59,091 nt of DNA. It comes from a virus. Its lineage: Duplodnaviria; Caudoviricetes. The stretch covers positions 1-59,091 of the IMG/VR virus record IMGVR_UViG_3300035673_000004. One strand, given 5' to 3'. The position numbers and the translations under genes were made by a program. Below the pieces are notes generated by a model. It searched no databases. It worked only from the letters and a program-made list of their open reading frames with translations, and was not told the origin of the DNA. Every line of letters begins with the position of its first letter. The first letter of the stretch is position 1. Shown here in pieces: positions 1,660 through 53,477 of this stretch.

Positions 1660-2805
1660 CTATTGATTTGACGTTGATATTTTCGGTGCGGCAATGGGGG
1701 TGCGGCAATCGTCGTTCCCATTCTGATCCAGGTTGATCAGCGCCATGCCTTCGCCGGCCATCCGCTTTCGGTCCGCAGCGTCAGTGTACACCTTCGCCTG
1801 GCTGATCGTCGACCAATCGAACATCGCCATGAGCTGGGAAGCCGTCGCGCCATTCTCGGCCGCCAACGTCGCGCCTGCCTTTTTCAGGCCATGCGCGGAA
1901 CACTGCTCGAGCCCGGCTTCGTCGCATCGATCGCGGAACCAGTTGCCGAACCCGGCCGGAGTGAAGGGCTTGCCTTGTTTTGTCTCGAGGAACGTCATGG
2001 AGCCGCATGGGCTTGAGGCGATGATATCCGCCAGCACGGGCAGGAACGGTTTCTGCGACACGTCCCGGCGCCGGTAGAGCGTCTTTTTCGGGACATAGCG
2101 CAGCCACCCGCCGCGGACGTGCTGCTTGCCGAATGTCACCATATCCTGCCGGCGAGCGCCGGAGAACAGCAGGAGCCCTAACGCCAGCCGCGCTCTGGTT
2201 CCGTGCCCATGATGCTGGAGGAACTGCTGCACGTCCGCCACGGTCCAAGTATAGAAGCCGCCGCCCTTGATCTTTGTGACGGTTCGTACATCCCGCGCCG
2301 GGTTGCTCGAGAGGTGGTCGTGGTCGACGCCCCAGCCGCACAGCGCGGAGAGATGCTTCCGTCGATTCGCGGCCGCGCCGGGTTGCCCGGCCTTCAATTC
2401 GACCAGCCGGCGGATTTTCTGCGCTGTCACATATTTCAGCGGACAGTTGCCCATTGGGTCTGAATCGTCGTCCGCCCGCGGCTCTCGAAAGCACTCCTCG
2501 AGGCAGTTGCGCCGCGCTCGCTGGCTTTCCTTGGCCAGTTTCGGGAATTCCTTCGAGGTGAAGTATTTGGCGCCCAGCCAGCCAAGCGAGCCTTTGGGGT
2601 GAGCCGTCAGAACGGCGGGGCTGTTTGATGGCGCCCGGCTGTCCAAGCGCTCGAGAGCTTCGCTGTACGCCTTGGCGAACGCCGCGGTCCCTTCGTCGGC
2701 TTTGATCCTGACCCGTCGCCCATGCCGGCGAACGTAGACCCTGGCATTGCCGTGGCGATCCGTGTCGCGCTCGAGATAGGGCAGGCTGGTTTCCATGTTC
2801 GTCAC
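1660..2805 (-). CDS. int: Phage tyrosine integrase
   Basis: LLFSGARRQD (catalytic R), PKKT, SAHGLKKAG, FDW and VYT (catalytic Y); GTG start overlaps the upstream stop, GGAGG RBS. Confidence 0.93.
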   Translation of the reverse strand: MTNMETSLPYLERDTDRHGNARVYVRRHGRRVRIKADEGTAAFAKAYSEALERLDSRAPSNSPAVLTAHPKGSLGWLGAKYFTSKEFPKLAKESQRARRNCLEECFREPRADDDSDPMGNCPLKYVTAQKIRRLVELKAGQPGAAANRRKHLSALCGWGVDHDHLSSNPARDVRTVTKIKGGGFYTWTVADVQQFLQHHGHGTRARLALGLLLFSGARRQDMVTFGKQHVRGGWLRYVPKKTLYRRRDVSQKPFLPVLADIIASSPCGSMTFLETKQGKPFTPAGFGNWFRDRCDEAGLEQCSAHGLKKAGATLAAENGATASQLMAMFDWSTISQAKVYTDAADRKRMAGEGMALINLDQNGNDDCRTPIAAPKISTSNQ

Positions 2806-2999
2806 GCCCGCTGATCCTCCCATTTGGAGGCGGGCTCATTCTGCCCGTCCTGCGGGATCATGGAAGCGGAATCTATCGGCTTATCCCCCACGATCAGGGT
2901 GCCGTCCGTCTTTACCCCAATCACGAAGCGGCCAGCTCGCTCAATGCCTTTGATGGCTCGAGCGAGAGAAGCTTCGGTGAAAGAGAGCGCGCGCGTCAT
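2802..2999 (-). CDS. Putative excisionase / recombination directionality factor
   Basis: 65 aa, directly upstream of and coupled to int; function inferred from position. Confidence 0.6.
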   Translation of the reverse strand: MTRALSFTEASLARAIKGIERAGRFVIGVKTDGTLIVGDKPIDSASMIPQDGQNEPASKWEDQRA

Positions 3000-36769: not shown

Positions 36770-37351
36770 GTGCGAACAAGAGAAGGAAATTCTCCTAACT
36801 GGATTCAGATTGGTGAGGCATATTGCAACAAACCCGTTTCGATACGGGCTTTAGCGAAGCATCACGGCGTTTCTGATACAGCGGTTCGAAAAGAGGCCAA
36901 GAAGCGCGGTTGGACCCGCCCCGACGCCAACTCGCCACCCCGCGAACCTGAGTGCAAACCAGACCGCGAACCGACAGCGGATGGTGTTGAGACCCGCGCA
37001 AAGGTGGTCGCGTCCGCGACGGTAACGCAGCTCACGGCCCGCGGCCGGAATATCATTCTGGCCCTGATGGACGAACTGGAGTTTCTGAATCGAAACGCCT
37101 CGGTCCTGTCCGAGTTAGTTGAGGATCACTTCAACGGCGAGAAGGATGGTTCGACCAAGGCGAGGCTGCTCAAGGCGCTCGACCACGAGACGCGGACCAA
37201 GAGTTCGAATCAGTTGGCAACGGCGCTGGCGAAACTGAACGACGCGGCCCCTGGTAAGAAAGAGCAGGCCCAGGCCGCGGCGGAGACGGCGGGCCAGGGG
37301 TCGGGGTGGGGTGACGATCTCGATACGGGCATAACCGGCCGGCCGAACTGA
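36770..37351 (+). CDS. terS: Terminase small subunit
   Basis: N-terminal HTH SIRALAKHHGVSDTAVRKEAKKRGW; GKKEQAQAAA tail; coupled to terL. Confidence 0.85.
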   Translation: MRTREGNSPNWIQIGEAYCNKPVSIRALAKHHGVSDTAVRKEAKKRGWTRPDANSPPREPECKPDREPTADGVETRAKVVASATVTQLTARGRNIILALMDELEFLNRNASVLSELVEDHFNGEKDGSTKARLLKALDHETRTKSSNQLATALAKLNDAAPGKKEQAQAAAETAGQGSGWGDDLDTGITGRPN

Positions 37352-39033
37352 TGGATGCGTGGGACCTGTCCTGCCCCGATTGGGAGTCGAGGCTGCTGTC
37401 CGGCCAACCGCTGGTTCCGGAACTGCCGCTGTTCAAGGCGGAGGCAGCGAAGGCGCTGCGGGTCTTCAAGCGGCTAAAGCTGCCGGATGTCATCGGCACT
37501 CCTACAATGGCCGAAGCGTGCGGGGAATGGTTCTTCCCGATCGTGACGGCGCTGTTTGGGTCTTACGACCCCGTCAACAACGTCCGGATGATCCAGGAGA
37601 TCTTCGAACTCATCCCGAAAGGGAACAGCAAGAGTTCAAACGGCGGCGCTGTGATGGTTGCGGCAACCATCGTCAACCGCAGGCCGGAAGCGGAGTTCTT
37701 GTTTATTGCCCCGACGATCGAGATTGCGACCATCGCCTTCAAGCAGGCGAAGGGCACGATCCGGCTAGACCCTGATCTCGATAAGCTGTTTCAGATTCAA
37801 GACCACGTCCGGAAGGTGACGCATCGGCGCTCTGGCGCCACGCTGCAGATCAAGGCCGCCGATACCGACGTTATCACCGGATCGAAAGCCAGCGGCACGA
37901 TGATCGACGAGACACACGTTTTCGCGAAACGATCGAACGCAAAGGAAATATTCGTTGAGCTCCGTGGAGCGCTGACCAAGCGCCCTGACGGGTTTCTGTT
38001 CCAGACCACGACGCAATCGAAAACACCTCCGTCCGGAGTCTTCAAGTCCGAACTGGCGATGGCCCGTGCAGTGCGCGACGGCAAAATGAGATTGCCGCTT
38101 CTGCCGGTGTTGTACGAATTACCGGAGCGGATTTCGAAAGACGGCGGTTGGAAGAATCGGAAGTACTGGCCGCTGGTCAATCCGAACCTTGGCCGTTCGA
38201 CGAGCGAAACTTTTCTCGGCACCGAACTATTGAAGGCTGAAGAGGATGGGCCGGCGTCAATGGCGCTGCTTGCTTCGCAGCACTTCAACGTAGAGGTTGA
38301 CCAGGCGCTTCGCTCTGATGGATGGGCGGGTGCAACACTCTGGCCGCGCGGCGCTGAAAAGGGTTTGACACTCGCCGAAGTTCTTCGTCGCTCGGAAGTT
38401 TTGACGGTCGGGCTTGATGGAGGCGGTCTAGACGATTTGTTAGGCGTCTTCGTATTAGGCCGTGAAAAAGGAACCGATGTTTGGCTGAGCTGGGCGCACG
38501 CCTTTATCTCCCCCGAGGGTTGGGAGCGACGCAAGGCCAACCGAACTCTCTACGAAGACTTCATCAAGGATGGAGATCTGACGCTCGTTGATCGGCTGCC
38601 GGACGACGTCACGGCGGTCGTCGATATCGTCAAGCAGTGCTTGGACTCCGGCAAACTGGCGAAAGTCGGCGCCGATCCCGCCGGTATCGGGTCGATAGTC
38701 GATGCTCTCTCCCGCATCGGGGTCACGCAAGAAAACGAGTTACTCGTTGGCGTCCGACAGGGCGTCGCGCTGATGGGCCCCATTAAGACTGTCGAGCGCC
38801 GGCTCGCGGACGGATCGTTCAAGCATGGCGGCCGCCGTATGATGGCGTGGTGCGCGGGCAATGCGATCGTAGAGGCCACCGGAACCGGAATGCGTATCGC
38901 AAGAAATGCGTCGGGTTACGGGAAAGTCGATCCTCTCATGGCCGGATTCGATGCCGTCGCTGAGATGTCGTTGAACCCGGAGCCAATCCACGGGCCGTCA
39001 ATTTATGAATCGCGCCCGATGCTGATGGTCTAA
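37351..39033 (+). CDS. terL: Terminase large subunit
   Basis: IPKGNSKS (Walker A), MIDETH (Walker B), VGLDGGGLDD and KVDPLMA nuclease motifs. Confidence 0.97.
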   Translation: MDAWDLSCPDWESRLLSGQPLVPELPLFKAEAAKALRVFKRLKLPDVIGTPTMAEACGEWFFPIVTALFGSYDPVNNVRMIQEIFELIPKGNSKSSNGGAVMVAATIVNRRPEAEFLFIAPTIEIATIAFKQAKGTIRLDPDLDKLFQIQDHVRKVTHRRSGATLQIKAADTDVITGSKASGTMIDETHVFAKRSNAKEIFVELRGALTKRPDGFLFQTTTQSKTPPSGVFKSELAMARAVRDGKMRLPLLPVLYELPERISKDGGWKNRKYWPLVNPNLGRSTSETFLGTELLKAEEDGPASMALLASQHFNVEVDQALRSDGWAGATLWPRGAEKGLTLAEVLRRSEVLTVGLDGGGLDDLLGVFVLGREKGTDVWLSWAHAFISPEGWERRKANRTLYEDFIKDGDLTLVDRLPDDVTAVVDIVKQCLDSGKLAKVGADPAGIGSIVDALSRIGVTQENELLVGVRQGVALMGPIKTVERRLADGSFKHGGRRMMAWCAGNAIVEATGTGMRIARNASGYGKVDPLMAGFDAVAEMSLNPEPIHGPSIYESRPMLMV

Positions 39034-39043
39034 GGAAATTGAG

Positions 39044-40447
39044 ATGGGTCTGATCGACTTGGGCCGCCGCATTTTTGGCGGTGCGGTCGAAAAAGACTAC
39101 AACCCGGCTGACGCATCTGCGTTATGGGAAAATCTTGGTGGCGGTGGTTCCGCGACCGGGCTCCGAATTACTCAGTCGACGGCAGTCAGTGTCTCGACGG
39201 TGTATGCTTGTACCTCGATACGATCCAAGGATGTCGCGCGTTGCCAGCCGCGGCTGATGAAAGTAAATAGCGCGCGGGCCGACAAGCCTGTTACGGATCA
39301 TCCGGTCGCGAAACTGTTCGTGCGTCCGAACAAATGGCAGACGTGGACGGAATTCTGCCGGCAGATGCACGCCGCGTTTCTGCTTCGCTGTAATGCCTAT
39401 GCGGTTATTCTTCGTGATGGCCGCGGTAGGCCGATTGCGCTGATCCCTGTCAACCCGGATTACGTCACGCTCTATGAGGCGCCGGGCGGATATCTATTCT
39501 ACAACGTAACACGCCCTTCAATTTTCATGTCCGCGATTCTCGCGGGCCAGCCGTTGATGATTCCGGAAGATGATGTTTTTCATCTTCGCGATCTAGGCTT
39601 CAATATGCTTGTGGGGCTTTCTCGCATCGCTGTTGCGCGAGACTCGTTCGGTGTTGCTCTCGGCCTCGAACAGCAGGCGGCTAGATTTATGGCGAACGGT
39701 GCGCGTCCTAGCGGCGTGCTGACGACCGACAAGAAGCTGAGTGAATCAACCGCGCTTCGCCTGCGCACGCAATGGGAGCAACTTCGTTCCGGCATTCAAA
39801 ATGCCGGTCGCACTGCAATCCTTGAAGAGGGATTGAAGTGGAATGCGATGCAATTGAATTCGGTAGACCTTGAGTTCATCGCGCAGCGCGAGTTTTCGAT
39901 CGGTGACGTTGCGCGCTGGTTTGATATGCCGCTCTACAAGCTCGGTGTCAAAGGCGAGATGGCGCGCATCAAGTTCGATGACGCCGACCAGGCATACGTC
40001 AACACCACGATCATGCCGGACCTGGATGCGTGGGAACAGAAGTTCGTCCAGAAGTTCGATCTCGATAAAGAGGATTTGGTCGCAGACTTCGACGAACGAA
40101 GGCTGTTACGAGCTGCGGAAGCGACGCGGATAAATAACCAGCGCCTCAAGATCATGTCTGGCATCTCGACGCAGAACGAGTGCCGCGCCGAAAATGGCGA
40201 TCCGCCGTTGCCTGGCGGCGACGTGCTGCTGACTCCGGTCAATCTTGCTCCGGCTGGTTCGGACATGTCGGGTGCTCCCGCGGACGGAGCAGGGCGGCCG
40301 GATGACGGAACGTTGTCGGACTCCCCGAGTACGCCAGCGGCGCCGCAGAAGTCAGTGATCGCGCCTTACATCGTAAGCGAGCAAAGCGCGTTCGTTCAAA
40401 ATACGTTAGCGGCGATTCCCGAAACGACGATGCAGGAGAATGGTTGA
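39044..40447 (+). CDS. Portal protein (HK97 family)
   Basis: VYAC...RPNKWQT...GLSRI...NGARPSGVL...ILEEG...NECRA. Confidence 0.97.
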   Translation: MGLIDLGRRIFGGAVEKDYNPADASALWENLGGGGSATGLRITQSTAVSVSTVYACTSIRSKDVARCQPRLMKVNSARADKPVTDHPVAKLFVRPNKWQTWTEFCRQMHAAFLLRCNAYAVILRDGRGRPIALIPVNPDYVTLYEAPGGYLFYNVTRPSIFMSAILAGQPLMIPEDDVFHLRDLGFNMLVGLSRIAVARDSFGVALGLEQQAARFMANGARPSGVLTTDKKLSESTALRLRTQWEQLRSGIQNAGRTAILEEGLKWNAMQLNSVDLEFIAQREFSIGDVARWFDMPLYKLGVKGEMARIKFDDADQAYVNTTIMPDLDAWEQKFVQKFDLDKEDLVADFDERRLLRAAEATRINNQRLKIMSGISTQNECRAENGDPPLPGGDVLLTPVNLAPAGSDMSGAPADGAGRPDDGTLSDSPSTPAAPQKSVIAPYIVSEQSAFVQNTLAAIPETTMQENG

Positions 40448-41505
40448 TGAGGCGTCGTGCATTTCCGGGAGGCGGCCCAGAGGTCGAAGCGCGCTATCAA
40501 CGCGCTGGGCAATGGCTACTCGCCGCCGTCTATCAGGATGAAAAAGCCGCGCTCTGGTGTGCGACGAACGGCGTTCGCATGACGAAGGCCGCAGCCGAGG
40601 GTATCGGATCAAGCGGTGGGTTTCTTGTTCCGACCGATCTCGCCAATGCAATTCTGGATTTGCGCGACAGTTACGGCGCGTTCCGCCGCCGCGCTCGCAT
40701 TGTGCCGATGGCGTCGGACAACACTTCCGTTCCGCGGCGCCCTGGTGGAACGGGCGCGTTCTTCATGGGCGAGAACAATACAGCATCAACCGATGTCAGC
40801 TCCAGCGTCTCCGTCGATCAGATCAGCCTGACAGCCAAGAAAATCGGCTCACTTATCAAGTTGCCGAGCGAACTTGAAGAAGATGCGTCGGTCGATATGG
40901 TCGATTTTGTCGCCAACGAAATCGCATGGGCATTTGCCGCGCTGGAAGACGATTGCGCGTTCAACGGCACCGGGACTTCGGCCTACGGCAAGATGCGCGG
41001 TATCGGGTCCATCGTTCTTGATGGCAATCACGCCAAGGCGAAAGTCACCGCCGCTCACAATACGTTTCTCACGCTCGACTCGACGGACTTAGGCAATCTC
41101 ATGGCCGCTGTGCGGGCGTCGGCAATTCCGAACGCTGCGTGGTTCTGTTCGCAGACCTGTTTCGCGACCACGTTCTGCCGGCTTACCGGTGGCAGTGGCT
41201 ATCTCGAAACCAGAATTGTAGACGGCGTCTCTACGCCGTTCTACCAAGGCTTCCCTGTCATCCTTTCGCAGAAGATGCCACTTGTCGCAACGTCGCTAAG
41301 TGGTGCCGTCATGCTCGCCTTCGGCGATATGTACGCCGGCGGTGCGCTCGGTCAGCGCCGCGGCGTGACGTTGGCTCGCTCGGCGGATCGTTACCTTGAC
41401 CAAGATCAGATCGCGGTGCTTGGCACCGAGCGTTTCCATGCCGTTGTGCATGACCTTGGCGACAATGCGAACTCTGGCTCGCTCGCCGCTTTGGTCGGAA
41501 GTTGA
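40447..41505 (+). CDS. HK97-fold capsid protein paralogue 1 (short N-terminus)
   Basis: GGFLVP...AFFMGEN...LTAKK...FNGTGT...AFGDM...GTERF; TGATG coupling to portal. Confidence 0.9.
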   Translation: MRRRAFPGGGPEVEARYQRAGQWLLAAVYQDEKAALWCATNGVRMTKAAAEGIGSSGGFLVPTDLANAILDLRDSYGAFRRRARIVPMASDNTSVPRRPGGTGAFFMGENNTASTDVSSSVSVDQISLTAKKIGSLIKLPSELEEDASVDMVDFVANEIAWAFAALEDDCAFNGTGTSAYGKMRGIGSIVLDGNHAKAKVTAAHNTFLTLDSTDLGNLMAAVRASAIPNAAWFCSQTCFATTFCRLTGGSGYLETRIVDGVSTPFYQGFPVILSQKMPLVATSLSGAVMLAFGDMYAGGALGQRRGVTLARSADRYLDQDQIAVLGTERFHAVVHDLGDNANSGSLAALVGS

Positions 41506-41527
41506 GAATGATTATCGGGAGATGCGT

Positions 41528-42823
41528 ATGACGCGCAAGCTGTTGACGATCGATGAATTCCGCGCGGCGGCGAAAGATGGCGGTAGACCGGAAGGGACCG
41601 TCCTCCGTCTCGCCGTGGCCGAACCCGAAACAGCCGCCGACGATAGCCGCAAGGTTCGTTTCGTTTTCAGCGACGGAACGATAGACCACGCTGGCGACAG
41701 CATCGATCCGGCTGGGTGGCAGACTGCGACTTATCTTAAAAATCCGGTTGCGCTTTGGGCGCATGACAGTTCGTCGCCTCCGATCGGGCGGTCCTCCAAC
41801 GTGGGTGCGTTTGGCGGCAAGCTGATGGGCGATATCGAGTTCATGACGGCGGATATCAGTGCCTTCGCAGATTCAATTTACCGCATGGTGGCGGCGGGAT
41901 TCATCAAGGCGGTGAGCGTCGGATTTATTCCGCTCAAGTGGGTTTTCGTAAGCGATAAAGACCGGCCGTTCGGTATCGATTTCACCAAACAGGAATTGCT
42001 TGAAATTTCCGTATGTCCGGTGCCGTGCAATCCGAACGCCTTGCAGGAAGCGAAATCGCTAGGCATCGACACGGGTCCACTGCGTGAATGGGCGTCGAAA
42101 GTCTTGGATGAGGGTGGTCACATCCTAATCCCACGCAACGTTCTGGAAGAGACGTTCCGCCAAGCCAAGACGCCTCGCGCGGTGCGGCAGAAATATCTGG
42201 CGAAGTCCGAAATTGTTGCCGCATGGAAGGCTGGGGCAGCCGAAGATTTGTCGGTTATCGAATCCGACACGTGGGACGGTGCCGCCGCGGCGAAGCGGAT
42301 GCTTGATGCGGCCGGCTTTGATGGCGATGCACCGGACGCTGCGAAGGCAGCGCGCGGGTTTCTCATTCATGACGCCGCCAACCCAACGCTGCGCAGCAGC
42401 TACGCGCTGCCGTTCGCTGATATCATCGATGGCGAGTTAAAGGCCGTCAAACCCGGTATTGTCGCCGCCAAGAGTCGCATCGATCAATCTGACGCGCCCG
42501 CCGCAGTGCGCGCTGAGGCAAAGGAAATTGCCGACGAATACGACTTGAAGGAAGTCGTTGCCGTCGAAAAAATTATCGGGGTGCCGGAGGAGAAAGCCGG
42601 ACGCCGTATCAGCAGCGCCAACGAGGCGAAGCTGAAGGCTGCAATGGACCATCACGCGTCCGCAACTCAATGCATCAAGGATGTGCTCGACAGCAACGCC
42701 GCTGCCGAAGATCCGGATGGCGATAATGACGATCCCGCTGACGTTCCGGAAGTTGTAGTACTTTCCGCGATCGAGCAGCGCATCGCCGAAGCGAAAGCGC
42801 TGAGAGCTACCGTCAAAATCTAA
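41528..42823 (+). CDS. Prohead maturation protease with C-terminal extra domain
   Basis: NPVALWAHD, AVSVGF, LLEISVCPVPCNPNA. Confidence 0.93.
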   Translation: MTRKLLTIDEFRAAAKDGGRPEGTVLRLAVAEPETAADDSRKVRFVFSDGTIDHAGDSIDPAGWQTATYLKNPVALWAHDSSSPPIGRSSNVGAFGGKLMGDIEFMTADISAFADSIYRMVAAGFIKAVSVGFIPLKWVFVSDKDRPFGIDFTKQELLEISVCPVPCNPNALQEAKSLGIDTGPLREWASKVLDEGGHILIPRNVLEETFRQAKTPRAVRQKYLAKSEIVAAWKAGAAEDLSVIESDTWDGAAAAKRMLDAAGFDGDAPDAAKAARGFLIHDAANPTLRSSYALPFADIIDGELKAVKPGIVAAKSRIDQSDAPAAVRAEAKEIADEYDLKEVVAVEKIIGVPEEKAGRRISSANEAKLKAAMDHHASATQCIKDVLDSNAAAEDPDGDNDDPADVPEVVVLSAIEQRIAEAKALRATVKI

Positions 42824-42951
42824 AGCCTGAAATTTTCTAAATCGATCGACGTCATTCGCAAGACTGACGGACGCCGCGCATCGCGCCGCTGGCAACACCG
42901 CCTATTCCCCGCGCTTAGGCAGCGCACCAGCGGAAAAATGGAAACATAGCG

Positions 42952-44265
42952 ATGGCTACCAAGAAGCACGAAGTCAAACAGCATCTCGCTGCGTTGGCTG
43001 ATGAAATCGAGAAGATGGCCGGCAAGTCCGAGGATCAGGGCTTCAAACAGGACATCTACGACGCACTCAAGGAAAAGTTCGTCGAAGTCACGGCACAGCT
43101 TGGCCGCGTCGAAGAGGCCGAAACGATCGCGCGCAATCTCGCGACCGCCGTACCCGGCCAGGATCGCCTGACTCCGTTCGCGCCGCCCAGCGCGCACAAG
43201 CTTTTCAGCACGGTCAAGAATTTCCAGGACCGTGAGATCGAGGGCCGCATGGTTCGCTCCGTCGATCAGGCGTACACGGCCGGCATGTGGTTCAAGGCGA
43301 CTCTGATGGACGATCCCGTCGCCAAGGATTGGTGCCAGTCGCGCGGCGTCTCGATTGCCAAGGCGCAGGGCGAAGGTGTCGACTCTGCCGGCGGCTTTCT
43401 CGTTCCCGAAGAGTTGATGGCGAATATCATCGTGCTCCGTGAGCAGTTCGGCGTGTTCCGGCAGGAATGCCAGGTCGTACCGATGGGCTCCGATACGCTC
43501 AACTGGCCGCGCCGGACTGGCGGTCTCACTGCGTACTTCACGGGTGAAAATCAGGCTGCCACCGAGTCTCAGGCTGCTTGGGATAACATCAACCTGACCG
43601 CCAAGAAATGCGCCGTGCTCACGCGCATGTCGACCGAAATCGAGCAGGATGCCGTGGTCGCGATCGCCGACTGGTTGGTCGGCGAAATGGCCTACGCCTT
43701 CGCTTCGAAGGAAGACGATTGCGGTTTCAACGGCGACGGCACGTCGACCTACGGCGGTATGCGCGGCACCACGTTCCTCGCGACCGATGGTAGCCACACC
43801 GCGGGCAAGATCAATGGCGGCGCCTCGTTTGCCGCAACTACGCTTGCTCAGCTTACGGCGTTGATGGGCCTCCTGCCGCAATACGCCGCCGGAAGCGCCA
43901 AGTGGTATATGTCGCAGCAGGCGTTCTATTCGATCGTTGCGAATCTGCTCGCAGCCGCCGGTGGCAACAGGCTCGATATCCTGTCCGAAGGCGTGCAGAA
44001 GCGCTTGCTTGGTTTCGATGTGGTGATTGCGCAGAAGTTGCCGATCGTTATCCCGGCGACAACCAAGGCCATGCTTCACTTCGGCGACTTGAAAAAGGCG
44101 GCGATGATGGGCGAGCGCCGGGGCGTCACGATCAAGCGCTCGGATCACCGGTACTTCGAGAACGATCAGATCGGTCTGCTCGGCACCGAGCGTTTCGACG
44201 CGAACGTCCACGATATCGGCGACAACACCAGCGCCGGCCCACTCGTGACGCTGGTCGTTCCGTAA
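42952..44265 (+). CDS. Major capsid protein (HK97 fold, with delta/scaffold domain)
   Basis: N-terminal coiled coil; GGFLVPEE...AYFTGEN...LTAKK...HFGDL...GTERFD. Confidence 0.96.
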   Translation: MATKKHEVKQHLAALADEIEKMAGKSEDQGFKQDIYDALKEKFVEVTAQLGRVEEAETIARNLATAVPGQDRLTPFAPPSAHKLFSTVKNFQDREIEGRMVRSVDQAYTAGMWFKATLMDDPVAKDWCQSRGVSIAKAQGEGVDSAGGFLVPEELMANIIVLREQFGVFRQECQVVPMGSDTLNWPRRTGGLTAYFTGENQAATESQAAWDNINLTAKKCAVLTRMSTEIEQDAVVAIADWLVGEMAYAFASKEDDCGFNGDGTSTYGGMRGTTFLATDGSHTAGKINGGASFAATTLAQLTALMGLLPQYAAGSAKWYMSQQAFYSIVANLLAAAGGNRLDILSEGVQKRLLGFDVVIAQKLPIVIPATTKAMLHFGDLKKAAMMGERRGVTIKRSDHRYFENDQIGLLGTERFDANVHDIGDNTSAGPLVTLVVP

Positions 44266-44307: not shown

Positions 44308-44339
44308 CCCCTTTCATCTCTTTGCCCAAGGAGGGCATC

Positions 44340-44810
44340 ATGACGGTTCCCGCAGCTAAACTTCTTCTCGATACTGTGGCTGGCACTGTCGGCGCGCTGA
44401 CCAACGGCGCCACCGGCACTTCAGCCAACATCGACACGCTTGGTTTTGACTTCGTGTCGATCGATGTGTCTGCAACCACGCAATCCGCTTCGACCCAGGC
44501 CGGCTCGCCTTCGGTCCTGAAGATTCAGGAGTGCGACACCACGGTCGTCACCTCGTTTGCCGATGTTGTCGGCTTCCGCGGCGGTTCTGCAACTGCGACC
44601 AACGTCGACTTCGTGGTCGGTATCGGCCGAACCTCGGGCGTCAACGCGTACAAGTTCAACGTCGATTGCCGCGCCCGCAAGCGGTATCTCAACGTCGTTC
44701 TGACGCCGACCACGACGCAGACGTTCTACGTCACCGCCAACGGCTTCCGCGGCGAGACCTCGCCGTCGACTGCTTCCAAGGCCGGCGTGATCTCGCTGAT
44801 CGAGGGCTAA
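44340..44810 (+). CDS. Putative head decoration protein
   Basis: Beta-rich Thr/Ser-rich protein after the capsid gene; IDTLGFD...KRYLNV; AAGGAG RBS. Confidence 0.7.
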   Translation: MTVPAAKLLLDTVAGTVGALTNGATGTSANIDTLGFDFVSIDVSATTQSASTQAGSPSVLKIQECDTTVVTSFADVVGFRGGSATATNVDFVVGIGRTSGVNAYKFNVDCRARKRYLNVVLTPTTTQTFYVTANGFRGETSPSTASKAGVISLIEG

Positions 44811-44914
44811 CGAAGTTCCACTTCTGGCCCACACCAGGAGCGAACCTCAGCGCTGAATAGACGGAGGGGGATGTGGGTCCCTCTCCGTCGCCCTTCCCAC
44901 AATGGCAAAACGAA

Positions 44915-46069
44915 ATGATCAAACTTGATCTCGGGGCCGGACAGGTTCTGCGGCCTGACTTCATTCCGATGGGCCGCGACCACGGAACGGAAATTTACCC
45001 ACTCGCGTATGCCGACGAATCCGTCGATGAAATAGTTGCCTCGCACGTTTTGGAACACTTCCCGTACCGAGCGCTTGGTGCCATTGTTGCGGATTGGGCA
45101 CGATGCCTAAAGAAGGGCGGCAAGCTCAGGATCGCCGTTCCTGACTTCGCGCTGATCGCGCAAAACTATCTCGAAGGAAAACAGCAGCCACACGAGTCGT
45201 TTATCCTCGGCGGCCAGCAGGATGGTAACGACTACCATAAGGCAATGTTCGATCGCGACCGCCTGCGCGGTCTGCTGGCCGGCGCCGGACTTGTTCTAAT
45301 CGGATCGTGGAAATCTGAAATCGCTGACTGCGCGGCGTATCCGATCTCGCTCAATCTGGAGGCCAGAAAGCCTCACGCTTCGCAACTCACTGTCTCCGGC
45401 TGCATGTCCACGCCGCGGCTCGGGTTCATGGACAATTTCTTCTCCTGCTTTGAGGCCTGTGTTCCCTGCAATGTAAAATTGCGAAAACACGGTGGCGCCT
45501 TCTGGGGCCAGTCCATGACGAAGGTTTTCGAACGGACGATCGAGCAGGACAACCCGGACCTGATCCTCACGATCGACTACGACACGGTAATGACGGCGGG
45601 GCATCTGTCCCGCATGATCCAGACGATGATGCTTTACCCGGAGATCGACGCACTGGCGCCGATTCAATCTTCTCGGCATCACACCACGACACTATTCACT
45701 GTGGCGGGCGATGACGGCAAGAATGTCGATGGGCTACCGCGCACCGCGCTCGATGCCGACACGACGCCGGTAAAGACCGCGCATTTCGGGCTGACGCTGT
45801 TGCGGACGGCTGCGCTCAAGAAGATGGCGAAGCCTTGGTTTCATGCCATTCCTTCCCCGGCGGGTGATTGGGGCGAAGGGCATGTCGATGACGATATCCA
45901 GTTCTGGCGCCAATGGGAGGCGGCAGGAAATTCGCTACACCTCGCCAACCGCGTTGCGATCGGTCACATGGAATTGCTGGTCAAGTGGCCGGACATCAAC
46001 CTGACCACGTTCCACCAGCCGGTAACTGACTATCAGATTAACGGCGTTCCGGAAGAGTGCTGGAAATGA
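44915..46069 (+). CDS. Class I SAM methyltransferase / GT-A glycosyltransferase fusion
   Basis: KLDLGAG...VDEIVASHVLEH...RCLKKGGKLRIAVPD; ILTIDYD (DxD), FGLTLL, PWF, DDIQFW, IGH. Confidence 0.85.
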   Translation: MIKLDLGAGQVLRPDFIPMGRDHGTEIYPLAYADESVDEIVASHVLEHFPYRALGAIVADWARCLKKGGKLRIAVPDFALIAQNYLEGKQQPHESFILGGQQDGNDYHKAMFDRDRLRGLLAGAGLVLIGSWKSEIADCAAYPISLNLEARKPHASQLTVSGCMSTPRLGFMDNFFSCFEACVPCNVKLRKHGGAFWGQSMTKVFERTIEQDNPDLILTIDYDTVMTAGHLSRMIQTMMLYPEIDALAPIQSSRHHTTTLFTVAGDDGKNVDGLPRTALDADTTPVKTAHFGLTLLRTAALKKMAKPWFHAIPSPAGDWGEGHVDDDIQFWRQWEAAGNSLHLANRVAIGHMELLVKWPDINLTTFHQPVTDYQINGVPEECWK

Positions 46070-48051: not shown

Positions 48052-48245
48052 CGCTGTTTTCGTTTATGGTCGCGCAGCATGTACCTGATAGCAACAGCGG
48101 CGGGACCGCTGACCTTGGAATCGCCGGCCTCCCATTTACGAATGACGCGATCGGGTTTCGGGCCGCCAAGTTCAAGCCGCTGTCCGAGCTCCCTCTGAGT
48201 GAGGGCTAGGAGTTCTCGCGCTTCGCGAAGTTCGGTTGGTGTCAT
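48048..48245 (-). CDS. XRE-family HTH protein (antitoxin-like)
   Basis: MTPTELREARELLALTQRELGQRL...VIRKWEAG. Confidence 0.85.
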   Translation of the reverse strand: MTPTELREARELLALTQRELGQRLELGGPKPDRVIRKWEAGDSKVSGPAAVAIRYMLRDHKRKQR

Positions 48246-48963
48246 GATGTTTGGGTTTCTTTGCTGCGGAAAATTCGACGATATCACGGGAGCCTTTGAT
48301 CAGTCCGTGACGCTGTAGCGTGGGGTCTTCAACGTCGCTGGCGAGAATTGGTGCCGCTGTGAAATGGGGCTGCACTGCGTTGAACAAGCATGGATCAATA
48401 GGTGAGTGCGATAATACAGCCCACGCGCGGAGATTATCGTCCGTGACGGGTCGATCCAACATGAACCACAAGTGAGCCGAGAGAGTTTTCCATCCGTCAA
48501 GACCGGCTCCGCTCGACCATTGCGCCCAGAACGTTACGTCGTGAAATTCTGTTGGCAGTAGATAGGAAAGAAGCAAGAGTGCGTTTCCGGGTTGCTCGCC
48601 AGCATCAATCGAATCGGGGCACGGAATTTCGTCGAAGTCGAAGCAAACCCATCTCTCACCAGAGGGTGAACTTCTGAACGTCGCCTGCTTATCGCTTCCG
48701 CAGTGTTTAAGGCGCCGCACTGGGAGAGACAAATCCAAATCAGAGATGGGCTCGCCGCGGATGATAAGTTTTTGTGGCTCAGCACTGAGTGCAGTCAGAA
48801 TTTCCGCAAGGTCATAGATCGTTTCGGCGGTCTTTCGTTCAACTGTGAAGTAGCGCGCGGGCGCGGCGTGCCGCTTTCCGATCGTCCCATCCGAGCGCTG
48901 GATTAGTGTCTTGGTCGCGGGGCGGCCGTTAGCGGTTTTGAGGATGGTCAGGAGCGCTGTCAT
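48172..48963 (-). CDS. Stand-alone AEP (primase-polymerase)-like domain protein
   Basis: WVCFDFD (DxD), WSSGAG...SAHLWFMLDRP (His motif), IDPCLFNAVQPHFTAAP (third acidic residue). Confidence 0.7.
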   Translation of the reverse strand: MTALLTILKTANGRPATKTLIQRSDGTIGKRHAAPARYFTVERKTAETIYDLAEILTALSAEPQKLIIRGEPISDLDLSLPVRRLKHCGSDKQATFRSSPSGERWVCFDFDEIPCPDSIDAGEQPGNALLLLSYLLPTEFHDVTFWAQWSSGAGLDGWKTLSAHLWFMLDRPVTDDNLRAWAVLSHSPIDPCLFNAVQPHFTAAPILASDVEDPTLQRHGLIKGSRDIVEFSAAKKPKHHDTNRTSRSARTPSPHSEGARTAA

Positions 48964-52789: not shown

Positions 52790-53477
52790 TTACTTCGGGA
52801 GGTGGCCGTGCTTTTGATGAGTCGACGGTGCTCTAGGCAGCCATAACCTTCTTTGCGGCCAGATTTCAGGCTGCACAATTTCGTGCCGTTTAAAATCAAT
52901 GACTTAACCGGAGAAAGCACCTCCCACGTCACCATGACCAAGGACGGCTTCACGTTCTTGGCGATGGGGTTTACCGGCGCCGCAGCGGGCCTTTTCAAGG
53001 AAAAGTACATCGCGGCGTTTAACGTGATGGAAGCCGAGCTGCGGAGAAGGATGGCTGCTGAACCGGCGGGTCCGCAGTTTCAGATCCCCCAAACGCTGCC
53101 AGAAGCCCTGCGGCTGGCCGCCGATCTATCGGAAAAGGTTGAGGAGCAGAAAGCCCAGATCGAGGCCGCTAAGCCCAAGACGGTCTTCTATGACAAGTTT
53201 GTCGAGGCTGACGGCTTGTACGGCTACATGAACGGCGGGCGGGCTCTAGGGTGTCATCCTACGCTCTTTGTGCGGTGGCTGAAGCGGACCTACGTTTTCT
53301 ATGAAGGCTCGGCGTTGCTTCCTTATCTGAAGTGGAGGGCAGATGGGGTTGTTCGAGATCACGTCCGAAATTGGCGGAGACGACAAGGCCCGGCCTCGCG
53401 GGTGGATAACGCCGAAGGGGCTGGAATATCTGTCGACACGCATCCCGCCCGAGATTAAGATTCAGGCTGCAGCTTAG
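52786..53477 (+). pseudogene. Rha + KilA-C (ANT) antirepressor, disrupted
   Basis: MTKDGFTFLAMGFTG..A..FKEKYIAAFN (Rha); IPQTLPEALRLAADL...PK; C-terminus GLFEI...WITPKGLEYL is in another frame after ~53338; N-terminus truncated. Confidence 0.8.

Follow-up and report, generated by a model that had tools for sequence, protein, structure and literature searches.

The DNA examined here (referred to as the window) is the 59,091-nt IMG/VR viral record IMGVR_UViG_3300035673_000004 (Duplodnaviria, Caudoviricetes), a linear contig (1-59,091) with an estimated completeness of ~87%. Judged from its genes, it looks like the genome of a temperate siphovirus. Its head module carries two genes for capsid proteins of the HK97 fold, designated cap1 and cap2, which flank the prohead protease gene in the order small terminase (TerS), large terminase (TerL), portal, cap1, S78 protease, cap2 and connector. 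The presence of two such genes on either side of the protease had been proposed in an earlier note made from the sequence, and was confirmed by the open reading frames (ORFs), by matches to PF05065 and by BLASTP. The features of this region are as follows.

39044..40447, plus strand: portal, 467 aa (PF04860, 262 bits)
40447..41505 (stop included), plus strand: cap1, short HK97-fold capsid paralogue, 352 aa (PF05065; phrog_10, major head protein)
40447..40587, plus strand: cap1 leader, residues 1-47, up to K47-A48, homologous to cap2 residues 91-137
41522..42823, plus strand: prohead serine protease, 433 aa (S78 domain PF04586; phrog_80, head maturation protease)
42824..42951, plus strand: untranslated leader of cap2, 128 nt, with a small conserved hairpin at 42911-42925
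42952..44265, plus strand: cap2, full-length HK97-fold major capsid protein, 437 aa (PF05065; phrog_10 over residues 1-421)
42952..43362, plus strand: cap2 prodomain (delta or scaffold-like), residues 1-137, up to K137-A138, helical in the model

The start of cap1 was placed at the ATG at position 40447, which is matched by the ATG starts of the orthologous genes; the ORF lister begins one codon upstream, at a TTG. For the protease, the start was set at the ATG after the end of cap1, the alternative start given by the lister being a TTG at 41396 that would overlap cap1. The TGA of the portal gene and the ATG of cap1 have one base in common (TGATG), and the Shine-Dalgarno (SD) sequence AGGAG is located 8 nt upstream of the cap1 ATG.

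Both capsid proteins matched PF05065 above its cut-off of 24.2 bits, with scores of 109.9 bits for cap1 and 161.3 bits for cap2. In a BLASTP comparison they were 42% identical over 347 columns (E 8e-90), a similarity far beyond chance. The alignment is collinear, joining residues 13-351 of cap1 to residues 95-435 of cap2, and contains all of the shared motifs quoted in the earlier note (GGFLVP, GEN, LTAKK, EDDC.FNG.GTS.YG.MRG, DQI..LGTERF...VHD.GDN and TKAAAEG/AKAQGEG). Approximately 90 N-terminal residues of cap2 (1-90) have no counterpart in cap1. When the clades of cap1 and cap2 orthologues were compared, 75 positions, distributed along the whole fold, were found to be fixed alike in both, and 16 were fixed differently.

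The AlphaFold2 model of cap1 (predicted local distance difference test score, pLDDT, 85.3; predicted template modelling score, pTM, 0.82) is a confident HK97 fold. Its best Foldseek match in the PDB was the capsid protein of the Rhodobacter capsulatus gene transfer agent (RcGTA; 6tb9, E 1.6e-15), and a total of 366 matches to solved HK97-fold capsids, including HK97 itself (2ft1, 1ohg), were obtained at E <= 0.001. The RcGTA capsid protein was also the closest solved match of cap1 by sequence (E 9.8e-14). The model of cap2 (pLDDT 79.9; not subjected to a fold search) has the same order of secondary-structure elements as that of cap1, preceded by long N-terminal helices at residues 2-23 and 33-64 that are missing from cap1, in agreement with the earlier suggestion that cap1 lacks the scaffold part. 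The leader of cap1 was modelled as two helices (residues 11-27 and 32-40), and a low-confidence stretch is present at residues 52-55.

A putative cleavage site precedes the mature fold in both proteins, as the earlier note had also pointed out. The corresponding dipeptide is K-A in all 29 cap2 orthologues and K/R-A in all 29 cap1 orthologues (K in 25 and R in 4). In HK97, the protease cuts at the equivalent end of the prodomain. By analogy, the protease of the window would be expected to cut both cap1 and cap2 at the K/R-A site, leaving mature proteins of 305 and 300 residues, respectively. The protease itself carries a C-terminal extension of ~240 residues past the S78 domain, which may be a scaffold or docking domain; the protease of the single-capsid outgroup described below can be aligned with it over the protease domain only.

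The conservation of the gene pair was examined in loci gathered from IMG/VR with cap1 as bait, from IMG/VR with a cap2 alignment as bait, and from species-representative genomes. Altogether, 35 distinct loci encoded a cap2 protein at least 65% identical to that of the window, two of which were too short to judge, leaving 33 informative loci. In 31 of them cap1 is located between the portal and protease genes. The remaining two (L031 and L051) carry a short-leader capsid paralogue after the homologue of orf162, a gene that follows cap2 in the window. No informative locus lacks a second capsid gene, and a hand count of those returned by the cap2 search only gave the same picture (28 of cap1 type plus 2 of the variant type, 30/30). 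The nearest outgroup (L057 and L058, with cap2 proteins 53% and 48% identical to that of the window) has a single capsid gene, in the order portal, protease, capsid, orf162 and a methyltransferase-glycosyltransferase (MT-GT) fusion. Only one capsid match was likewise found in relatives whose cap2 is 30-39% identical.

The cap1 orthologues from 29 distinct loci are intact, 57-78% identical and nearly constant in length (347-354 aa); the cap2 orthologues are 66-90% identical. In public protein data more than 120 clusters of cap1 were found at 67-92% identity, 118 of them comprising proteins of 347-360 aa, with two others of 341 and 363 aa. A homologue 71% identical to cap1 (WP_259235002.1) is encoded in the chromosome of Bradyrhizobium elkanii, where it probably sits in a prophage. 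The hosts of relatives found in metagenome-assembled genomes (MAGs) are one Afipia and one Caulobacteraceae bacterium, and the scan of species-representative genomes yielded two loci. A cultured relative is absent from the phage collection, in which no listed match exceeds 29% identity to cap1 or 24% to cap2, and no record reaches 60%. No record of this collection has two places matching cap2, and one of 135 records has two places matching cap1. Matches in Ruminococcus phages annotated as hypothetical proteins turned out to be ordinary single capsid genes, and a short match in locus L065 proved to be a protease-capsid fusion of another lineage.

The spacing between portal and cap1 was compared in 27 related loci. 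A 1-nt overlap was found in 3 and a gap of 9-53 nt in 16 of them; apparent overlaps of 106-1062 nt and gaps of 306-3058 nt were present in 4 loci each. Adjacency of the two genes is the rule, and strict coupling is not. The coupling of cap1 to the portal gene claimed in the earlier note therefore holds for the window and, as regards adjacency, for most relatives, with strict coupling confined to 3 of the 27 loci. Insertions within the block were observed in L005 (1855-5199), L009 (7041-8107) and L023 (3372-4558); they separate portal from cap1 by 3 kb, or cap1 from the protease by ~1 kb.

The ratio of nonsynonymous to synonymous substitutions (dN/dS) was calculated by the Nei-Gojobori method, with pairs of dS < 1.5 considered usable. 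The medians, which are rough values, were ~0.26 for cap1 (300 of 406 pairs usable) and ~0.20 for cap2 (399 of 406). Both genes are clearly constrained and under purifying selection. Together with the locus survey, this bears out the expectation that the second gene is intact and conserved (33/33 loci). The leader of cap1 is constrained too, since across the orthologues the proportion of nonsynonymous differences was 0.275 vs 0.587 for synonymous ones. In the same pairs of loci, dN of cap1 was 1.59 times that of cap2, being higher in 99% of 231 pairs, and dS was higher in cap1 in 95% of 217 pairs. Codon bias was stronger in cap2 in 18 of 22 loci, by GC content at third codon positions (0.79 for cap1 vs 0.833 for cap2) as well as by the effective number of codons (38.3 vs 34.2). 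The faster change, higher dS and weaker codon bias of cap1 would all follow if cap2 were the more highly expressed gene.

The two proteins also differ in the distribution of conserved positions. Within-clade identity at the tip of the E-loop was 0.43 in cap1 vs 0.82 in cap2, and in the base strands of the loop 0.59 vs 0.93, whereas the A-domain was equally conserved (0.62-0.67 vs 0.64-0.65). A relaxed E-loop is to be expected if cap1 were a penton protein, which occupies one environment, and cap2 a hexon protein, which has to fit several quasi-equivalent ones.

Pairwise identities from 18 loci revealed that cap1 diverges together with cap2 (rho 0.64) and with the protease (rho 0.55), and not with the portal (rho 0.08). 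The cap1-protease-cap2 block is stable, and the portal and TerL genes beside it have been swapped freely (37-93% identity). Thus, cap1 belongs to the shell module.

Heads of the HK97 type are, in the textbook case, built from one protein that forms both hexamers and pentamers. The HK97 gp5 and RcGTA (6tb9/6tba) capsid proteins share with cap1 and cap2 the fold, the Pfam family and the proximity of portal and protease genes, and they have a prodomain that an S78-type protease removes, as is predicted for the proteins of the window; they differ in that one protein serves as hexamer and pentamer subunit, while the clade of the window keeps two. The classical exception is phage T4, whose vertex protein gp24 has a much shorter propeptide than the major protein gp23, both being trimmed by the prohead protease. 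The likeness lies in two HK97-fold paralogues within one genome, the second with the shorter propeptide. T4, however, is a large myovirus of prolate head shape, its scaffold core is separate and its gp23 and gp24 genes are adjacent, whereas the window represents a temperate siphovirus-like phage of ~60 kb, in which the paralogues are closer (42%), their genes flank the protease and a scaffold-like prodomain is part of the major protein.

A second dual-protein head was recently reported for the Mycobacterium abscessus siphophage Jabs. According to the preprint, the proteins MCPh and MCPp, both of the HK97 fold, form the hexons and pentons, respectively; the hexon protein shows no density for residues 1-266, taken by its authors as a removed maturation domain, and the 257-residue penton protein was modelled from residue 3 (10.64898/2026.07.24.740622). 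There, this strategy is called unprecedented among icosahedral phages (10.64898/2026.07.24.740622). Jabs and the phage studied here are alike in being siphophages with two HK97-fold capsid proteins, of which the hexon protein (in the window, the presumed one) alone has a long N-terminal region. The Jabs proteins are 18% identical, 594 and 257 aa long and encoded by adjacent genes, whereas cap1 and cap2 are 42% identical and predicted to be near-equal in size when mature, and a leader of 47 residues is retained in cap1; the two systems have no sequence relationship. The location in the particle is proven for Jabs, while cap1 and cap2 are known from their genes.

Taken together, cap1 is very probably a functional protein of the head module. 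As to its role, we tentatively favour, at somewhat less than even odds, that of a minor shell subunit, most probably the penton protein at the pentameric corners, by analogy with the dual-protein heads of T4 and Jabs, which the head of this phage may resemble in its working. Two features of such heads are present: the paralogues are kept together in all 33 informative relatives, and cap1 is without a long maturation domain at its N-terminus such as the hexon protein has. In the model we propose, cap2 would be the abundant, hexamer-forming protein, with its long helical prodomain acting as a built-in scaffold. Having lost the distal 90 residues of the prodomain, cap1 would most likely be unable to build a shell alone and would co-assemble with cap2 as a minor subunit; the distal prodomain could be dispensable for a subunit that does not drive assembly. 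The best-fitting position for cap1 would be the eleven pentameric corners, as for T4 gp24 and Jabs MCPp. Both proteins would be trimmed at the K/R-A site by the S78 protease, whose gene lies between theirs. We infer in this way the presence of cap1 in the particle, its cleavage, its stoichiometry and its corner position.

Several of the observations described above, namely faster evolution, weaker codon bias and a laxer E-loop, point to cap1 as the less abundant and less constrained partner. In addition, cap1 is placed with the low-copy head genes portal and protease, upstream of the cap2 leader, a position that may be a sign of low copy number. The vertex role, one of several options listed in the earlier note, is consequently the one favoured by these features and by the short prodomain; of the other options, the portal-proximal one is disfavoured by the portal correlation, and nothing was found in favour of a decoy acting for this phage.

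A number of points weigh against the penton assignment. Cap1 does not have a reduced axial domain like that of Jabs MCPp: the predicted mature lengths of cap1 and cap2 are near-equal and the spine helix of the model is continuous. Predicted SD pairing is no weaker in cap1 (median -6.5 kcal/mol vs -5.6 kcal/mol in cap2), so translation signals do not mark cap1 as the minor protein. The dN/dS values suffer from dS being near saturation. Short-leader proteins of the same clade may build shells with other helpers, and the origin of cap1, treated below, may have been a duplication within the lineage, an older duplication followed by loss, or acquisition from another element.

Other functions of cap1 were considered against the same data. 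It is unlikely, though a serious alternative, that cap1 is an assembly modulator that sets the size or shape of the head (triangulation number, prolate vs isometric) or yields a second particle size. The precedent is Ccm of SaPIbov5, described as a homologue of the HK97-fold capsid protein of the helper that co-assembles with it, occupies the pentamers and alters head shape (PMC8569155). Cap1 is similarly homologous to a capsid protein (42% identity to cap2), and short-leader genes of the same clade occur in elements unlike full phages, in one case near a primase-helicase gene, in a 7.3 Mb genome whose only PF05065 gene is the short-leader one. In cultures of Bradyrhizobium, siphovirus-like particles of both prolate and isometric form have been seen (PMC11599138), a lead that is not linked to this phage. 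Ccm, however, is encoded by a satellite and acts against its helper by changing the shape of the head, whereas cap1 forms part of the phage's own head module in every relative, and in the window lies in a 59-kb contig together with integrase, TerS, TerL, portal, protease, connector and tail genes. A phage-encoded protein present in every member of the clade and co-diverging with cap2 fits a constitutive part better than a switch. The modulator role also overlaps with that of a penton protein, which influences head size as well.

The idea that cap1 acts as a decoy, absorbing a capsid-sensing defence or interfering with satellites that hijack the shell, appears quite improbable. Related short-leader genes in island-like, possibly satellite contexts indicate that capsid homologues may be traded between phages and their parasites, but no link to defence or satellites was found within the window, the 75 positions shared with cap2 extend along the whole fold, selection on cap1 is purifying and not diversifying, and cap1 co-diverges with cap2 and the protease. 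The location of cap1 directly after the portal gene (the two overlap by 1 nt in the window and are 9-53 nt apart in 16 of the 27 loci) would suit a protein that builds or seeds the portal vertex or a procapsid nucleation complex. This is nevertheless very improbable: co-divergence with the portal is negligible compared to that with cap2 (rho 0.08 vs 0.64), portals only 37-45% identical to that of the window adjoin cap1 genes that are 70-78% identical, and the short paralogue of L031 and L051 lies away from the portal altogether. In solved tailed phages, moreover, hexamers of the major protein surround the portal, as described for JBD30 (PMC11445458). Finally, the general mosaicism of the region is the one feature that would suit a functionless leftover of a duplication or of recombination between related prophages. 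This possibility is effectively refuted by the conservation of cap1 (intact in 29 distinct loci, dN/dS ~0.26, constant length, 0/33 losses) and is extremely improbable. The assignment of cap1 as a minor shell subunit, probably at the corners, accommodates these data best.

The origin of cap1 was investigated by phylogenetic analysis. In the tree, cap1 (29 rows) and cap2 (29 rows) each formed one clade with support of 99-100, and their inner topologies were broadly parallel. An enlarged tree included three chromosomal short-leader capsid genes from genomes of the family to which the Afipia MAG belongs. In this tree, cap2 grouped with the single-capsid outgroup (Shimodaira-Hasegawa approximate likelihood-ratio test, SH-aLRT, 96 in the full set and 92.9 in a thinned set), and cap1 grouped with the paralogue of L031 and two island genes (support 89 and 92). 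An arrangement with all genes of the dual-capsid clade as one group and the outgroup outside was not rejected by the approximately unbiased (AU) test (p 0.353). The two different insertion sites point to at least two events in which a short paralogue was acquired or changed place.

Short-leader capsid genes encoding proteins 43-46% identical to cap1 were observed in bacterial chromosomes, where no normal head module surrounds them; they are those of L106 (9911-10972; G200 chromosome), L104 and L107 (3339-4421). The 301-genome sample of the family of the Afipia MAG gave four matches, and the island-type capsid was found in none of 400 other genomes in the sample of the order. In one complete genome of 7.3 Mb, the short-leader gene is the sole match to PF05065, and a primase-helicase gene lies ~2.2 kb upstream of it. 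Such an island gene may be part of a satellite or of a prophage remnant. Searches of the island neighbourhood against Pfam and PHROGs left most genes without an assigned function; no tRNA gene was found there, and composition gave no clear boundary. Island-type short capsid genes outside the portal-protease-capsid order were also noted in the viral contigs L109 (1810-3803), L110 (8426-10650) and L111 (1-4058). In L109 and L110 they are flanked by conserved genes encoding proteins of ~200-220 and ~115 residues, in L111 a protease-like gene follows the capsid gene, and in L109 and L111 a large terminase gene is located downstream.

A more far-reaching scenario, speculative and distinctly unlikely, would be that short-leader HK97 capsid genes constitute a clade of mobile genes, exchanged between the head modules of phages and satellite-like chromosomal islands, which reached this lineage on two or more occasions and at two sites. 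In that case the copy in the phage would be a domesticated capsid-redirector of a satellite, or else the source from which the satellites drew theirs, and the dual-capsid head would be a product of phage-satellite conflict rather than of simple duplication.

The other features of the window that were annotated are listed below.

1660-2823, minus strand: integrase
36770-37351: small terminase (TerS)
37351-39033: large terminase (TerL)
44322..44810, plus strand: orf162, 162 residues (phrog_5707, function unknown)
44873..46069, plus strand: MT-GT fusion (PF08241)
Downstream genes: head-tail connector, tail terminator and tail protein
Tape-measure position: ORF of 1,582 residues without a family match

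The untranslated leader of cap2 contains a small hairpin at 42911-42925 (GCGC-TTAGGCA-GCGC). In an alignment of 24 related leaders its stem showed compensatory changes, with a similar loop. Paired positions were changed on both sides in 13 cells, compared to a mean of 4.5 in shuffled alignments, a count that was reached in none of 500 shuffles. The leader has no match in Rfam and no promoter- or terminator-like site, and its overall folding energy is unremarkable (z -0.35). The hairpin could be a signal for processing of the mRNA or for controlling translation of the major capsid gene.

In nearly all relatives with sequence extending past cap2, orf162 is the next gene, even where the cap2 protein is only 32-53% identical. 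Its product may be a decoration or cement protein; a weak lead from a protein atlas is a match to the Bbp16 family (PF21190), present in 15% of one cluster with a score of 0.92. The MT-GT fusion matched PF08241 with 27.1 bits (cut-off 21.2), its sole match above a curated cut-off, while PF13632 (21.2 vs a cut-off of 27) and the other methyltransferase matches fell below theirs. The fusion follows orf162 in related loci, and its glycosyltransferase half is found after the capsid gene even at 30-39% capsid identity. This arrangement within the head module suggests glycosylation of the virion. Two further genes lie amid the tail genes: a primase-like gene (48172-48963, minus strand) and an Ant/Rha-like regulator gene (52853-53458).

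Phrase searches of the literature for phages with two capsid genes, supplements not being covered, turned up Jabs, the Ccm work on SaPIbov5 and papers related to T4, and no description of this family. JBD30, SU10, Goslar and an actinobacteriophage dendrogram were followed up as possible cases of phages with two capsid genes and proved to be false leads. Compared to T4 and Jabs, the new elements are capsid genes that flank the protease, closely related paralogues, a short leader that retains a cleavage motif, occurrence throughout a clade of temperate alphaproteobacterial phages, a positional variant and an outgroup with a single capsid gene.

A dedicated corner protein is known from T4, and was shown for the first time in a siphophage in the 2026 Jabs preprint. 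If cap1 is indeed a penton protein, this design, far from being a rarity, would be the norm throughout a large and uncultured clade of temperate phages infecting soil Alphaproteobacteria; clusters of cap1 were found in Bradyrhizobium, Afipia and Caulobacteraceae genomes. The clade would then be useful for learning what makes a capsid subunit specific for pentamers or for hexamers, and what part the prodomain plays in each. At 42% identity the specialisation would be young enough to be read from the sequences, and the single-capsid relatives, together with the variant in which the second gene is located elsewhere, allow comparison. The probable prophage in cultured B. elkanii offers a way to put the proposed role of cap1 to the test.

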